This document shows positions 24,001 to 30,000 of a stretch of DNA of 41,280 nucleotides, one piece after another (within the stretch, counting starts at the first letter, position 1; the number at the start of each line of letters is the position of its first letter). A program made the position numbers. Source of the stretch: an uncultured bacterium (lineage in GTDB: Bacteria; Krumholzibacteriota; Krumholzibacteriia; WVZY01); NCBI GenBank assembly GCA_965372355.1, contig CBDVBZ010000012.1, positions 1-41,280 on the forward strand, in the 5' to 3' direction.

Positions 24001-27000
24001 TTCGTGGAAAGCTATCGGCAGAGGAGATGTTCGGGCAGATCGATTTTCTGATCCGACAGCGCTTCCCGGATCGCAGGGTACCGATCCCCATGCTGAAGAT
24101 CCAGTTTGCGCGTATGGGCGAGCCGTCGTTGAACCCCGCGGTGCTCGATGTACTGGAAGATTTTTCCAATCGGTACGAAGCTCCCGGCTTTATGCCGAGT
24201 ATTTCTACGGTTGCCCCAAAGAACTCCGACGGCTTCTTTGACAGGCTGATCGAGCTGAAGAACAGGTACTACGCCGGTGGCAGATTTCAGCTCCAGTTCT
24301 CTCTCCATAGCACGGATGAGCAAACGAGAAACAGGCTGGTTCCCGTCAAGAAGTGGGGATTGGCCCAGATCGCCGAGTGCGGAGAGCGTTTCTACCGTGT
24401 GGGGGATCGAAAGATCACACTGAATTTTGCTCTCGCCAAGAATCTGGAGCTGGATCCCGATGTTCTCCTGCGTTACTTTGATCCTGGCAGTTTTCTCGTC
24501 AAAATGACCCCTCTCAACCCGACGTATCGGGCGAGGGAGCACGGTCTCGAATCCTACATTGATCCCGGGGCGGGCGAGCAAAGCTACGAGAAAGTAGAGG
24601 CGTTGAGAGCGGCGGGCTACGACGTCATCGTGAGCATCGGGGAACTCGAGGAGAACCAGATTGGGAGCAACTGCGGTCAGTACCTCCAGCGTCACCTCCA
24701 CGAGCCACAGAAGATCGGCGACGGCTACACGTACGATGTAAAGGAACAGTAGCCCCGGGTGCGGGGACGGCGAACGAGACCTGTTGAATGAACAGCCCGA
24801 TATGGTGTCGGGCTATTTTCTTTCGCTGAGCGTGCGCTCCATGATTGGGATCGTGGTCTTCTCGTGGTAGGTGGCGATGCGATTGATCTCTTGCATAATT
24901 GCGGAACGCTTCGCGCCGGTGAGGTGGTAGTGCATATCGACGATCTCGGCGCCGCGAACGCCCTCGCCACCGAGGAACGTACCGCCCATGGCAATCATGT
25001 AATCGGGCAGCGAGTCGATATTGTTTGCCGCCGCCCACATCCGGCACCAGCCACGGCTCGTGGCCGTGACATCGTAACCGCCGCCACCGAGAAGCAGTAG
25101 GTGTTTGGCGTATTCCCGAATGGATTTCATCACCGTTTCCATACCGTTGTTCGTCAGGTTGAGATTGGCCAGCGGATCCGAGCGGTGTGTGTCCGCACCG
25201 ATGATGGCCACGACCACGGTCGGTGCGAACAGCGTCACAGCCGGTGTGACGACCCGATTGAATACATTCTCGTAGGCATCGTCGTCTGTCTCTTCGGGCA
25301 GCGGAACATTGATCGTGAACCCCTTGCCGATGTCTTCGCCGATCTCCGTCTCGAACCCGCTCCACGGATAGAGCGTCTTGCCACTCTGGTGGAGTGAAAT
25401 GGTCAGGACGCGGTCGTCGCGGTAGTAGGCATCCTGCACACCGTTGCCGTGATGGGCGTCGATATCGATGTACGCCACCCGATAACCCCTTGCGAGAAAT
25501 TCATCGATCGCGACGATGGCGTCGTTGACATAGCAAAATCCTTCGGCGTGCGACCGGCTGGCATGGTGGAAGCCCCCAAGAGTGTTGAACACGACGTTGG
25601 CGTTTTCCTTGGTGATGAAATCGACGCCCGTGATCGTCGCCGACGAATACAGGAGCACATAGTCGAAGAGACCAGGAAAGATCGGGCAGTCCTCCGTGCC
25701 GAGGTTAAACTTTACAAAACGTTCCGGTATCGCGCCGAATTCGGCATCCTCCAGTGCGTCGATATACGCCGGTTCGTGTGATTCGATAAGGCGTTTCTTT
25801 GTGATTGCCTTTGGCTCCTCGACTCGCATCCAGGGCTCATCGAGATACCCTTCCTGCTGGATCAGTTTGAGTGTGCTTCGCGCGCGGCCCGGATCAAAGG
25901 GATGCTCGTCGCCGTACGTATAGTCGCCAAAGCGCCCCGAATAGATAATGATGCTGTCCTTCGGACGCTCGATGGCCTCCTTCGGAAACCGGAATGTGAA
26001 AACGCAGGTCCCGGAATCAAAGCTTCTCTCGGCGGTGGGCCATGCCCGCCGGAGCAGCGACATCGTGGCGGCGTTCTCGGGGATGACATCGGCGTAGACG
26101 CCGGCAAGCCCGCGCGCGTAGGCGACCCGGCCGAGGTAGTTGGCGAGGAATGTTCCGATGCCGTGGCCGCGGTAATCCTCGCGCACCACGATGTCGAACT
26201 CGCCCATGTTGTTGTTGGGGTCGTACGTGTAGCGCCCCTCGCCGACGATGAGAGGGTTTCGCCAGGGACCGACCAGGCCCACGATCGCCATGTCCTTGCT
26301 GTAGTCGATCGCGGCCTGGCGCTGCGCGGCCGCATCGGTCAGCGTCTTGATCGTTCCGTGATACCTCTGTCGTACTGTGTCACGGGAAAGCGAGTAGAAC
26401 ATTTTCTGCAGGCGGTGGGCGTCGGCGGGCTGGATCGGGCGAAACCGTACCTCGGTGCCGTCGCGAAAGATCTTTGTGAACTCGTACTGATGGGGATAAA
26501 CGCATCCCGCTTCGGGCGGGATGATCTGGTCGTCGGTGACGTATTTGAGCTTCTTCGCTTCGTCGAGCAGCTGATGACGAAATCTGGGGTGCGCAATCGA
26601 GATCAGCGCGATGGCACGTTCGCGTACGGGAAGCCCGCACAGGTTGACCACACCATACTCTGTCACGACATAGTCTACCTCGGCGCGGTTGAACGCGACG
26701 CCGCGGCCGAGGCTTATCGAAATGATGTTCGAGCGTCTGCCGTCCTCTGAAGTCGAGCGTAGCGCCAGAATCGTGAAGCCGTCTTTTGAATGTCTGGCGC
26801 CATCGATGAAGTCCATGCTGGTGGGCAGGCTCCGTTGGAGTGACCTCTGTGTGGTGTTCGAGCGCGCCATTCCCGTGAGCTCCATCTCTTCGACCGTATG
26901 GATCGACACCATGTGGTCGTTCTGGGCGATGATCCGTGGATTGCTCACCTCGTCGATGGGTAAGAGCTCGATGTGAGGATTGGTAGCGATTTCCTCGTAG

Positions 27001-30000
27001 AGCGCCTTCGTTCCCATGGCCATCGTCGCGACCGTTTTGCCCTTGTGGACGGTTTTCATCTGGTTGGTAATGGCCCCGGATCTGATGAGACGGAGGATAT
27101 CGTCCGTCAGAATGGCGGTGTGTATCCCGAGATCGTGTCGTGTGTCGAGATAACGCATGGCGGCGGCGCTGATGGGCCCGCGATCGAACTGGAGCGTCAT
27201 GCCGTCGGTGATGAGGTTGGCAACGTATCGGCCGATCGTAAGCGACACGGGATCGGGTTGGGGTGACGTTATCTCTATCAGCGGTGCCGTGCCCTCGACG
27301 AGGTAGTCGATCTTGCTGACGGGAATCACCGAATCTCCCAGCGTTACGGGCATGGTCTCGTTGACCTGGGCGATCACGATGTCCGCGGTCTCTGCAGCTG
27401 CCTTGGTGGCATCCACCGACACACCCAGGCTGCAGAAGCCGAGCGAGTCGGGCGGCGCCACCTGGATGAGGGCCACATCGATCGAGATCGTGCCGTTCGC
27501 CATCGCGGCTGGCAGCTCGCTCACATTCATCGGTGTGTAATCCATCTCGTTGTGCTCGGTGCCCCCGGCGCTGTAGCGTCCGATGTAGAAGGTGTTGTAG
27601 CGGAAGCTGTCCCGGAACTCGGGTGAGGCGAGCTTCGACTCTTCGCGTGCCGATGTGAGGTGGATCACTTCGATGTCGGAGAAGTGAGCGGCCATCTCGG
27701 CGAGGGTTTCGGTGAGAAGAAACGGTTCACCCGCTCCCGAGCCGACAAAGATTGTCTGGCCGTTCCGAATGTGTGAAAGAGCGGCCTCTGCCGAGGCGAG
27801 CTGGTCGCAGTACGTGGTCTGCCAGGATCTATCGTACATATGATAACCGTGCCGAGTGGGACAACGCCATCCGCAGACAACTCAGTGGACTCTTACTCGA
27901 CATCATTGTAGCACACGGCGCGCGACTCATTGATCGTTATTCGAGGGCGTATAGACTTTGGCCTGTGGTGAATAGAACCATCTTCCCGTGGGGCACGGGT
28001 GTGTTTACGGCCGCGTCCGTTTCGAATCTCCACAACTCCCCACCGGTTTCGAGATCCAGCGCGTAGAGGTGATGATCACCACTGCCGAAGTAAACGACGT
28101 CTCCCGCAACGGTCGGGTGCGAGTACACGATGCCTGTTTTGTCGAAATCCCACAGCAGATCACCCGCTCTCGTATGGACGGCGTAGAGATGGCTGTCTAT
28201 GGTCGTGAAAACCGCAACGCGGTCCTTGACCGCCGGTGACCGGCTCAGACGCCCGTCCGCATCGAACGACCAGATTACCCGTCCGCTTTGCGTGTCGATC
28301 GCGCGGAGCGTGCTGTCGAAGCTCACGAAATAGGCGATGCCCTCAACAACGGCGGGCGCAGAAAACCATTTCGTCTTTTGATTCTGCTCGAACGTCCAGA
28401 GCTTCTTTGCCGCGTCCGTGTCGTATGCGTGCAGGTTGCCGCCCCAATCGGTGTAATACAAAACATCGTTCTCCACGGCAGGGCAGCAGCACAGATCATA
28501 GTCCTCTTCGATCCGCTCGACTTGTTCTCCTCTCTCGATATCGATCAGATAGAGCCCGTTGTCGTGGCTGCCCGCGTAAGCGATGCCGTTGTGTACAGCG
28601 GGAGGGAAGCATATGCCGCCGTCCGTCTCAACTCTCCACAGCTCCTCGCCATTCGAAAGGTCTACCGCATAGACGTTGCCGTTGGCGCAGCCGAGGTACG
28701 CGGTGTTTCCCAGAAGCGTCGGGGCGTTGTAGAGCTTTTTGCCTGTGTTGAATCGCCAGAGCTCCTGACCCTTGTCAAGATCCACCGCATATAGATATCC
28801 GGTCGAGCAACCAAAGTAGGCCACGTCACCGGAAACGGTCACGGTGCTCGTGGCGTCGCCTTCGGCGGCAAACGTCCATCGGACGCCGCCCAGGGTCTTG
28901 AGCGTCTCGGCTACGTAGACACCTGTGTGCTGCGGGTTGCCACGCGGAGTCATAACCGGCAAGCGCTCATCCGCGCGCGCTGGATGGACGTATAGCGCGA
29001 TCAATACCAGAGATATCAGGAAAACCTTCATCTGAGAGTCGTGGGGGATCTTTTTGTCAGGAATCTTCATTGTGAGTGGCACGGCGGACGCCCAACGCAG
29101 CGCCGGCATGCAACGGTCACGCCCTATTCGCTCCACGGTACGTCGGTGAAGCGGACTGCAATGAGACCGGCCGTCCGCATGAAGTGGGCAGGGATACGAT
29201 CCAGAGGATCGTCTGCACTAGCATCTCCAGAAACTCCTCGATCGATTTCGAGAAATGACGCGACGTGTCATACGGTGGCTGTCCAGAACGCTTCTGAGGC
29301 CGCTACCTCTGGAGCTTTGGCCGGTTTGCTTTCCACGCTTTTCTAATCCGGTTGGTCGTTCAGTGGATTCTAGTCATTGTGCCAGGAAACCGCGTGTCGG
29401 AAAACCTCTTTCTATGCGCCTTTCGGGGATGGATCCGGATGCGGGGGGAAGGGCGCCGGTGCGTTCGCAGCTGATGCTGTTCGGGATGCCTTTGGCGTGA
29501 GGGTTGGTTGTGGTATGCTCTTCCGTGCAGATGGGCGACACACCACGGTGCTTCCACAGAAAACGGCACGCTCGTCTCGTTCTCGAGTCAGGCAGTTGGA
29601 TGCCCGAACAAAGGAGTTGCGAGATGCCCGCCAGGAAACTCAAACAGATCCCGGACCACAACACAGTTCAGGTACGTGACGGTCAAGCACTCTGGGGCCT
29701 TTGTGACCCGTCGCCGGCATCGCGAAGGCAACTCCGAAATCAGCGAGGAGGATACCAATGACGGAAGTAAGTAAGCCAGAACGGCAGCGAAGGGTCCACG
29801 CGGCAATTGCGTTGATCGTCGTGGGTGCCGCCCTGTTTTTGCTTCAGGTGATCCGCGGCCCCGCGGAGGTCATCGTGTTTCTCGTGCTTGGGACCGCGTT
29901 TCTCGTGGGCTATTTTCGTAGCCGCTCCTACGGCCTCCTGGTTGCCGGGTGTATTCTGCTTGGTCTGGGTTTCGGCGCCCTGGGAGAGCGGTCCTCGATC

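Follow-up and report, generated by a model that had tools for sequence, protein, structure and literature searches.

Can one polypeptide both write and erase an acyl mark, and if so, on which target? This question is raised by a gene in a 41,280-nucleotide stretch of DNA from an uncultured bacterium of the Krumholzibacteriota (Krumholzibacteriia; WVZY01), contig CBDVBZ010000012.1 of assembly GCA_965372355.1, which we refer to as the window. The gene lies at 24813..27839 on the minus strand (start codon ATG at 27837-27839, stop codon TAG at 24813-24815) and encodes a 1008-residue protein that joins a CoA-transferase-like (CoAT-like) domain, a GNAT domain, and an HDAC domain; a plus-strand frame across the same interval is interrupted by stops throughout and was rejected. 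Metabolic control through acetylation has its textbook prokaryotic example in the reversible lysine acetylation of acetyl-CoA synthetase (Acs); to our knowledge, all described systems assign writing (Pat, AcuA, and others) and erasing (CobB, AcuC) to separate proteins. We propose, with a probability of roughly 0.6, that the fusion protein is a switch that senses acyl-CoA and, from a single chain, acetylates and deacetylates acetyl-CoA synthetases. The notion of a self-contained module for reversible protein acylation, which had been put forward from the sequence alone, remains the best reading, with the catalytic residues of both the GNAT and the HDAC domain intact.

Along the 1008 residues, Pfam placed AcetylCoA_hydro, AcetylCoA_hyd_C, Acetyltransf_1/_3, and Hist_deacetyl in this order, all far above their gathering scores. 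Together with full-length homologues, these matches bear out the three domains, their order, and the continuous 1008-residue frame of the sequence-only reading, the coding strand being the minus strand. An AlphaFold2 (AF2) model of the full chain, built on an alignment of 75 sequences, reached a mean pLDDT of 89.1 and a pTM of 0.88, which suggests that the three domains are packed as one defined, compact body. In whole-chain Foldseek searches, PDB entries covered one domain at most (query-normalised TM ≤ 0.40). A C-terminal extension follows the HDAC domain (residues 941-1008; 24816..25019, minus strand), for which the model predicts a long helix at 975-1007, preceded by a loop (952-960) that is disordered, and which shows 51% identity within the family. 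We hold what is said of the individual domains with high confidence.

Such a long frame could in principle be an artefact of assembly or annotation, in which a frameshift or a chimera fused genes that are separate in the cell, and distant relatives do carry the HDAC and the CoAT-GNAT parts as separate genes. We regard this as next to impossible. More than 110 independent cluster representatives, as well as ~35 genomes from different studies, likewise carry an uninterrupted frame of ~1000 residues, the junctions between the domains are conserved across the family, and AF2 modelled the whole chain with confidence. The fusion is biological, rather than a chimera or a frameshift product, because the same continuous architecture is found in independent homologues, in independent genomes, and in a syntenic relative of 91% identity, which settles the check for a chimeric or frameshifted assembly that the sequence-only reading had called for (117 full-length representatives, ~35 genomes, and the 91%-identical metagenome copy).

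The architecture, which could have been taken for a one-off, belongs to a conserved family of uncultured bacteria and archaea. A search of 5.8 billion proteins returned at least 120 cluster representatives at 56-91% identity, and 117 of the 120 listed are longer than 900 residues and span all three domains. In a scan of one genome per species, the full-length fused gene occurred in ~35 genomes, all of them metagenome-assembled, from Myxococcota/‘Deltaproteobacteria’, Latescibacteria, Krumholzibacteriia, Planctomycetota, Fibrobacterota, Nitrospirales, and the archaeal Thermoplasmata; the gene has apparently been passed between archaea and bacteria. The 91%-identical protein (L081) comes from an independent JGI metagenome contig with syntenic neighbouring genes. 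Databases list these proteins under automatic names, ‘AcuC-like enzyme/acyl-CoA hydrolase/GNAT’ at JGI and ‘GNAT family N-acetyltransferase’ at NCBI. Residue counts given below for the fused family refer to 118 full-length fused homologues.

The eraser half of the proposed switch is the C-terminal HDAC domain. Residues 629-940 (25020..25955, minus strand) were assigned by Pfam, PDB, and Foldseek comparison to the zinc-dependent deacetylases of the class-I HDAC/AcuC/HDLP type: Hist_deacetyl (PF00850) covers residues 646-937 with E = 6e-81 (272 bits, the cutoff being 27.9), among solved structures the class-I enzymes HDAC2 (E = 6e-64), HDAC1, HDAC3, HDAC8, and Rpd3 along with Aquifex HDLP (E = 1e-51) match best, and Foldseek recovered the arginase-deacetylase fold with TM values of 0.83-0.86. 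The catalytic histidine dyad, His758-His759 (25563..25568), is conserved as H in 117/118 and 118/118 sequences, respectively. The zinc ligands in Asp794-Ala-His796 (25452..25460), within the stretch DIDAHHGNG, and the third ligand, Asp883 (25191-25193), are invariant, and the catalytic Tyr922 in the GGGGY motif (25074-25076) is Tyr in 116 of the 118; all of these codons lie on the minus strand. The claim of a complete HDAC-fold domain was therefore correct, as H758-H759, D794, H796, D883, and Y922 are all present, and the domain, which keeps all catalytic and zinc-binding residues, is a predicted deacetylase. A 2024 survey of bacterial classical deacylases groups AcuC with the class-I enzymes (cluster 2), reports that AcuC deacetylates Acs, and finds that AcuC-type enzymes remove several acyl types from several peptides in vitro (PMC11532494).

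The writer half resembles the acetyltransferases of the Pat/PatZ type. Residues 458-613 (26001..26468, minus strand) were recognised as a GNAT protein lysine acetyltransferase by both PDB and Pfam matches (Acetyltransf_1 at residues 531-597, E = 4e-8; Acetyltransf_3 at 464-598). The domain's top matches among solved structures are without exception protein lysine acetyltransferases, headed by E. coli PatZ (9it0, E = 4e-15) and including the GNAT of Streptomyces SlPatA (4nxy), mycobacterial Pat (4ava and 4orf), and Sulfolobus Pat (3f8k). PatZ, Streptomyces PatA, and mycobacterial Pat acetylate acetyl-CoA synthetase. The sequence-only reading had set the domain beside AcuA-type GNATs; its closest matches are of the Pat/PatZ type, not the AcuA type, and AcuA did not appear among the matching solved structures. 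Glu547 (codon 26199..26201, minus strand) aligns with Glu809 of PatZ, the key catalytic residue of that enzyme (PMC12184503), and with Glu123 of SlPatA; at this position, 105 of the 118 family members have E and the other 13 have D. The sequence R-G-H-G-I-G at residues 557-562 (26154..26171, minus strand) matches the motif-A P-loop for the pyrophosphate of acetyl-CoA, defined as R/Q-x-x-G-x-G/A (PMC8556138), with R or Q at position 557 in 113/118 and G560 in 117/118 sequences.

The identity of these two domains also bears on whether the module acts on proteins or on small molecules. GNAT and HDAC folds both include small-molecule enzymes, for example the acetylpolyamine amidohydrolases (PMC11532494), and a small-molecule acylation module, which here would acetylate and deacetylate polyamines, amino sugars, or another amine metabolite, had been raised as an option in the sequence-only reading; one relative, moreover, has a lysine-decarboxylase-like (LOG) protein as its neighbour. 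The HDAC domain, however, matches HDAC1/2/3/8 and HDLP, i.e., the group of AcuC in cluster 2, and not clusters 1, 3, and 4, which hold the enzymes annotated as acetylpolyamine amidohydrolases (PMC11532494). The GNAT domain matches PatZ, SlPatA, and MtPat first, its sole small-molecule GNAT match being marginal (E = 0.005), and we found no conserved polyamine or sugar genes among the neighbours of the module loci. We consequently think a small-molecule module improbable; given a class-I-like HDAC domain and a Pat-like GNAT, a polyamine deacetylase was dropped as the leading idea.

The N-terminal domain has the fold of an enzyme but lacks its catalytic residues. Residues 5-432 (26544..27827, minus strand) were placed by PDB, Foldseek, and Pfam comparison among the CoA-transferases of family I (4-hydroxybutyrate CoA-transferase/AcetylCoA_hydro). 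AcetylCoA_hydro (PF02550) covers residues 9-182 (E = 1e-22, 81.5 bits) and AcetylCoA_hyd_C (PF13336) residues 276-428 (E = 2.5e-43, 148.1 bits); the nearest solved relatives are 4-hydroxybutyrate CoA-transferases (3eh7, E = 9e-101), and Foldseek found the two-lobed alpha/beta fold complete, with a TM of 0.94 (target-normalised) and an rmsd of 2.2. Identity to family-I CoA-transferases amounts to 33-39% over the N-terminal ~430 residues in the Foldseek alignments, and the equivalog model for butyryl-CoA:acetate CoA-transferase (TIGR03948) was not reached (206.8 bits against a cutoff of 674.8). In Yersinia RipA, Glu249 is the nucleophile that forms the glutamyl-CoA thioester of family-I CoA-transferases (PMC3180442). 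The GIHTE motif of RipA aligns with GIHTA in the window protein, so that Glu249 of RipA and Glu242 of 3eh7 correspond to Ala242 (codon 27114..27116, minus strand), a substitution that matches, in sequence and in Foldseek alignment, the engineered dead mutant RipA E249A (PDB 4n8k). Two further elements are replaced in the alignments: the G-V/I-G loop by the CoA pocket (G-V227-G in RipA) by D-R-G at residues 219-221 (27177..27185, minus strand), and GxGGQxDF, which is kept by all solved homologues and by the intact CoAT-GNAT relatives, by SLPTSMDF at residues 337-344 (26808..26831, minus strand).

The fused family shares this remodelling. The nucleophile position reads D in 106, E in 7, A in 2, L in 2, and G in 1 of the fused sequences; the GGQ triplet is mostly Pro-Ser-Ser, and no fused member has GxGGQ, not even where the Glu is kept. 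The replacement motifs FDRG, HTD, and LPSSMDF are themselves conserved, and the mean pairwise identity of the N-terminal domain (60%) is close to that of the GNAT (62-65%) and HDAC (68%) domains. In family-I CoA-transferases, Glu→Ala and Glu→Ser mutants are inactive for both reactions, while a Glu→Asp mutant is a CoA-ester hydrolase (PMC12400318). Since Ala occupies the nucleophile site and Glu→Ala mutants are dead, the window protein, as judged from its predicted active site, cannot carry out canonical CoA-transferase chemistry. The catalytic generation or handling of acyl-CoA that had been suggested for this domain is hence unlikely, given Ala242 and the replaced G-V-G and GxGGQ elements. 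Because the catalytic machinery is lost and yet the domain is about as conserved as the GNAT and HDAC domains, it is more likely to serve as a non-catalytic sensor or scaffold than as an acyl-CoA generator.

Could the N-terminal domain nevertheless still be an enzyme, either an acyl-CoA hydrolase or a CoA-transferase that uses another nucleophile, so that all three domains would be catalytic? The Asp found in 106/118 fused homologues is the very substitution that yields hydrolases among family-I mutants (PMC12400318), the remodelled FDRG and LPSSMDF motifs are conserved, and among representatives of a two-domain CoAT-GNAT family described below, the Glu is kept in 44/81 and the Glu together with the GG pair in 31/81. 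Against this, the window protein and its closest relative carry Ala, and both Glu→Ala and Glu→Ser abolish the two reactions (PMC12400318; RipA E249A); the nucleophile site accepts D, E, A, L, and G within a single family of more than 56% identity; and GxGGQ is missing from all fused members, even the Glu-keeping ones. Asp-bearing relatives might retain a hydrolase activity, against which the lost GxGGQ speaks, and for the family's N-terminal domain as such we rate an enzymatic role as doubtful at best.

Where the N-terminal domain came from can be read from more distant relatives. Clustering at 50% identity reduced the entire fused family in one library to a single representative (P0071), and the next matches are dozens of two-domain CoAT-GNAT proteins of ~600-660 residues (at least 80 clusters at 50% identity) that share 30-42% identity with residues 1-620 of the window protein. 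Among 81 such two-domain representatives, 44 carry the nucleophile Glu, 31 the Glu and the GG pair, and 74 the GNAT catalytic acid. From these counts, we infer that CoAT folds joined to a Pat-type GNAT make up a large family, with repeated loss of the CoAT active site, and some of the two-domain proteins may be active CoA-transferases. A distant CoAT-GNAT-HDAC fusion of 955 residues (P0125; 35% identity), with Gly at the nucleophile site, probably arose independently of the main family. Other architectures in the library include GNAT-HDAC (P0221), ferredoxin-CoAT-GNAT (P0121, P0127), receiver-HDAC (P0143), and receiver-CoAT (P0208).

In relatives at 35-41% identity, the HDAC (~378 residues) and the CoAT-GNAT protein (~630-635 residues) are encoded by separate, adjacent genes, in the order HDAC then CoAT-GNAT in L037-L039 and L045-L050, and in the order CoAT-GNAT then HDAC in L033 and the Anaerolineae loci L040-L044. 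That the two parts are neighbours in some genomes and fused in others is Rosetta-stone evidence that writer and eraser cooperate. The split versions keep the CoAT catalytic motifs HTE, GIG, and GIGGQADF intact and the fused ones do not, which suggests that conversion of the CoAT domain into a putative pseudoenzyme accompanied the fusion. Directly 3' of the split pair, four loci (L037, L039, L046, L047; e.g., L037:10997-12112) carry an additional GNAT of ~371-411 residues. In three Myxococcota loci (L008-L010), a second CoAT-GNAT paralogue of 641-735 residues without an HDAC domain lies at 11014-13754 of the locus on the minus strand and converges with the fused gene; it retains the catalytic Glu and GIGGQADF, and panB, a gene of CoA biosynthesis, and acs lie upstream.

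What, then, would be the target? The sequence-only reading had named none; gene neighbourhoods point to acetyl-CoA synthetases. We clustered the ORFs of 51 module loci (fused, split, or, in L051, CoAT-GNAT alone) with up to 8 kb of flank on each side. In a tblastn recount, an acetyl-CoA synthetase gene was present in 18/51 module loci, compared with 1/29 related loci that carry an HDAC only. The 18 comprise 8 AMP-forming and 10 ADP-forming synthetases, the majority of them directly adjacent to the module and co-directional with it. An AMP-forming enzyme is encoded directly upstream and co-directionally in L003, L008, L009, L010, and L038; L021, L043, and L044 have one in the vicinity. The Acs of L008 scored 1029 bits, above the NCBIfam AcsA equivalog cutoff of 725. 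All eight module-linked AMP-forming Acs proteins contain the motif PKTRSGKIMRR, whose lysine (K609 in Salmonella Acs) is the acetylation site of Pat-type enzymes (PMC12184503). Among the HDAC-only loci, the stand-alone HDACs of L059-L080 are 42-46% identical to the C-terminal domain and reside in a conserved gene cluster of their own, with ORF families of ~134, 498, 295, and 317 residues (c6, c3, c4, c7) downstream.

The ADP-forming neighbours, composed of CoA_binding_2, Succ_CoA_lig, and ATP-grasp_5 domains, are directly adjacent in L031, L033, L039, L045, L046, L048, L049, and L050; L007 and L051 have one in the vicinity. SHTG or SHTA, which we take to be the phospho-histidine motif of ADP-forming synthetases, occurs in eight of the nine full-length ones, and with this motif kept, they would be real enzymes rather than dead domains like that of Pat. 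We know of no report of ADP-forming acetyl-CoA synthetases as acetylation targets. Directly after the ADP-forming synthetase, two Syntrophaceae-type loci (L048:13312-14343 and L049:9187-10215) encode an AAA_26 plus DRTGG protein, which resembles the N-terminal regulatory part of phosphotransacetylase.

Combining domains and neighbourhoods, we envision the following mechanism. With acyl-CoA as the donor, the Pat/PatZ-type GNAT would attach acetyl or a different short acyl group to a target lysine, and the AcuC-like zinc hydrolase domain would take it off again. Binding of CoA or acyl-CoA by the pseudo-CoA-transferase domain, without turnover, would tip the balance between writing and erasing; as in the inactive domain of Pat/PatZ, to which we liken it, this domain may also provide an oligomerisation or dimerisation platform and a substrate-docking surface. 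In Pat/PatZ, that inactive acyl-CoA-synthetase-like domain has a nanomolar affinity for acetyl-CoA, acts as an allosteric gate on the GNAT, and contributes to the groove in which Acs binds (PMC8556138; PMC12184503). The likeliest targets would be AMP-forming Acs proteins, at the lysine of PKTRSGKIMRR, and possibly the ADP-forming acetyl-CoA synthetases. In this scheme, we infer what the substrate is, that the N-terminal domain senses a ligand, and that the two activities are regulated reciprocally.

Several observations weigh against it. Neither the window nor the surroundings of the gene in the 91%-identical syntenic relative contain an acetyl-CoA synthetase gene, and linkage to one was seen in only ~7 of 35 fused-clade loci; it is strongest in the split-gene relatives, whose CoAT motifs are intact and whose mechanism may therefore differ. 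With no acs in the window and a clade neighbourhood that is unrelated, the target assigned to the window protein is an extrapolation from relatives. The NCBIfam equivalog model for Pat (NF058543) scored the protein at 53.6 bits, far under its cutoff of 460. Finally, with Asp at the nucleophile position in 90% of the fused members, residual hydrolase chemistry is possible in relatives of the window protein.

The same sparse linkage would fit a more general role in acyl-lysine housekeeping, in which the protein would act on many proteins, for instance erasing the non-enzymatic acylation caused by reactive acyl-CoAs and re-writing specific sites, with the N-terminal domain reporting the acyl-CoA load. 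Most neighbourhoods in the fused clade have no relation to acs, the window locus lacks it, and AcuC-type enzymes have a broad acyl and peptide range in vitro (PMC11532494). On the other side, the GNAT is nearest to the Acs-specific Pat family, and AMP- or ADP-forming synthetase genes are strongly enriched beside the module in several phyla, while the HDAC-only loci show no such linkage. We consider housekeeping an unlikely alternative and favour the single-chain switch that acts on acetyl-CoA synthetases.

How does such a switch compare with known systems? Its closest counterparts are the type I enzymes Pat/PatZ (YfiQ) of Salmonella and E. coli and the type II enzyme SlPatA, whose GNAT is nearest in sequence and shares the catalytic Glu and the P-loop. 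Pat likewise joins a large, inactive CoA-handling domain to the GNAT, and Acs, the signature substrate of Pat, is encoded next to the module in relatives. The regulatory domain of the window protein, however, has a family-I CoA-transferase fold, whereas that of Pat has the fold of an NDP-forming acyl-CoA synthetase, and the window protein contains its deacetylase in cis, whereas Pat is paired with a separate and unrelated NAD-dependent sirtuin, CobB. The AcuA/AcuB/AcuC system of Bacillus subtilis also combines a GNAT writer with a class-I-type zinc eraser for Acs, is linked to acsA, and includes with AcuC an eraser of the same class-I-like group as the HDAC domain described here. It differs in that its parts are three separate proteins, with AcuA a stand-alone GNAT that is not close to the window GNAT, whereas the window protein carries writer and eraser on one chain plus an additional putative sensor domain. 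The window holds a single fused gene, with neither an AcuB-like (CBS/ACT) gene nor acs; in relatives, acs is co-directional with the module, whereas acsA is divergent in Bacillus. By its sequence, then, the module would provide a Pat/CobB-like and AcuA/AcuC-like control of Acs but lies outside each of these families as they are defined.

The individual parts invite similar comparisons. With 4-hydroxybutyrate and butyryl-CoA:acetate CoA-transferases and RipA, the N-terminal domain shares the full two-lobed fold; unlike in these enzymes, Ala stands in for the Glu, the G-V-G and GxGGQ elements are replaced, and CoA transfer is not expected. The two-domain CoAT-GNAT proteins are direct evolutionary relatives, some of which adjoin HDAC and acetyl-CoA synthetase genes; they differ in lacking a fused HDAC, and about half of them keep the Glu and ~40% both motifs. 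Opposing activities on one chain are known from converter enzymes such as the AceK kinase/phosphatase, the GlnE adenylyltransferase/adenylyl-removing enzyme, GlnD, and HPrK/P. As we propose for the fusion protein, a metabolite directs the opposing activities of one polypeptide toward a robust set-point; the chemistry of these enzymes is phosphorylation or nucleotidylation, and their folds are unrelated.

A 2021 review distinguishes five types of bacterial GNAT acetyltransferases, of which types I and II have a regulatory domain homologous to NDP-forming acyl-CoA synthetase and type III has a cAMP-, ACT-, or NADP-binding domain (PMC8556138); the N-terminal CoAT fold of the window protein fits none of the five. 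Nor does the 2024 survey of classical deacylases present a protein built in this way. The full-text literature that we searched, which leaves most subscription journals outside, contains no description of a CoAT-GNAT or GNAT-HDAC fusion, nor did the literature searched describe a lysine-acetylation converter enzyme. The impression from the sequence alone that no described protein has this architecture thus holds for that literature, in which, apart from the automatic database names, none was found. A paper on the Syntrophus acyl-proteome deals with sirtuins only.

Within the window, the surroundings of the fusion gene offered little guidance. A scan for promoters and terminators was uninformative: between the convergent fusion gene and a plus-strand gene at 23808-24752, a G+C-rich hairpin with a T-run (24794..24814; no strand assigned) resembles a terminator by consensus match only, the number of such hits not exceeding the expectation from shuffled sequence. 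Upstream, at a distance of 97 bp and on the same minus strand, lies a gene for a BamB/PQQ-like beta-propeller (27937-29136). Conserved neighbours were rejected as a functional clue, as this beta-propeller gene and a downstream radical-SAM-like gene recur only in the 91% relative (L081).

Elsewhere in the window, a plus-strand ORF of 1608 residues (8113-12939) combines an acyl-activating AMP-binding region (residues 154-519, a weak match), AMP-binding_C_3 (579-696), and a C-terminal GNAT (1484-1584), with ~790 residues lacking a Pfam match between the AMP-binding part and the GNAT. It is the second large acyl-handling/GNAT fusion of the window, is unrelated to the fusion gene, and is overlapped by an antisense ORF of 789 residues (10138-12507). 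A 551-residue protein on the minus strand (13855-15510) matches Thiol_cytolysin, the cholesterol-dependent cytolysin family, with 140 bits; this family is unusual outside Firmicutes-type pathogens. Two near-mirrored ORFs of 332 residues lie at 15679-16677 (minus strand) and 15682-16680 (plus strand), the minus-strand product being without a Pfam match. Toward the start of the window, we found a family III CoA-transferase (1060-2379, minus strand; 457 bits), a MASE1-PAS-PAS-SpoIIE(PP2C) sensor phosphatase (2465-5020, minus strand), and a 12-repeat LVIVD beta-propeller (4888-7299, plus strand), whose ORF overlaps the 5' end of the sensor phosphatase gene.

The fusion matters on several levels. 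It offers a ready-made system in which the coordination of opposing acetylation activities takes place on one scaffold. Its putative regulatory domain would be of a new kind, a pseudoenzyme derived from a CoA-transferase, in parallel to the dead acyl-CoA-synthetase domain of Pat. By a Rosetta-stone link, it connects the uncharacterised CoAT-GNAT family with HDAC-type deacetylases and with AMP- and ADP-forming acetyl-CoA synthetases, and it does so almost wholly within uncultured lineages (Myxococcota, Latescibacterota, Krumholzibacteriia, Planctomycetota, Chloroflexota, and Thermoplasmata). In its boldest form, which we advance tentatively and at somewhat under even odds, the protein would be the first natural lysine-acetylation ‘converter’, its balance set by the acyl-CoA/CoA bound to the pseudo-CoAT domain, and would represent a new, sixth architectural class of acetyltransferases whose sensor was repeatedly turned into a pseudoenzyme. 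If true, acetyl-CoA synthetases would be under set-point control, and this sixth acetyltransferase class would be widespread in uncultured bacteria and archaea.

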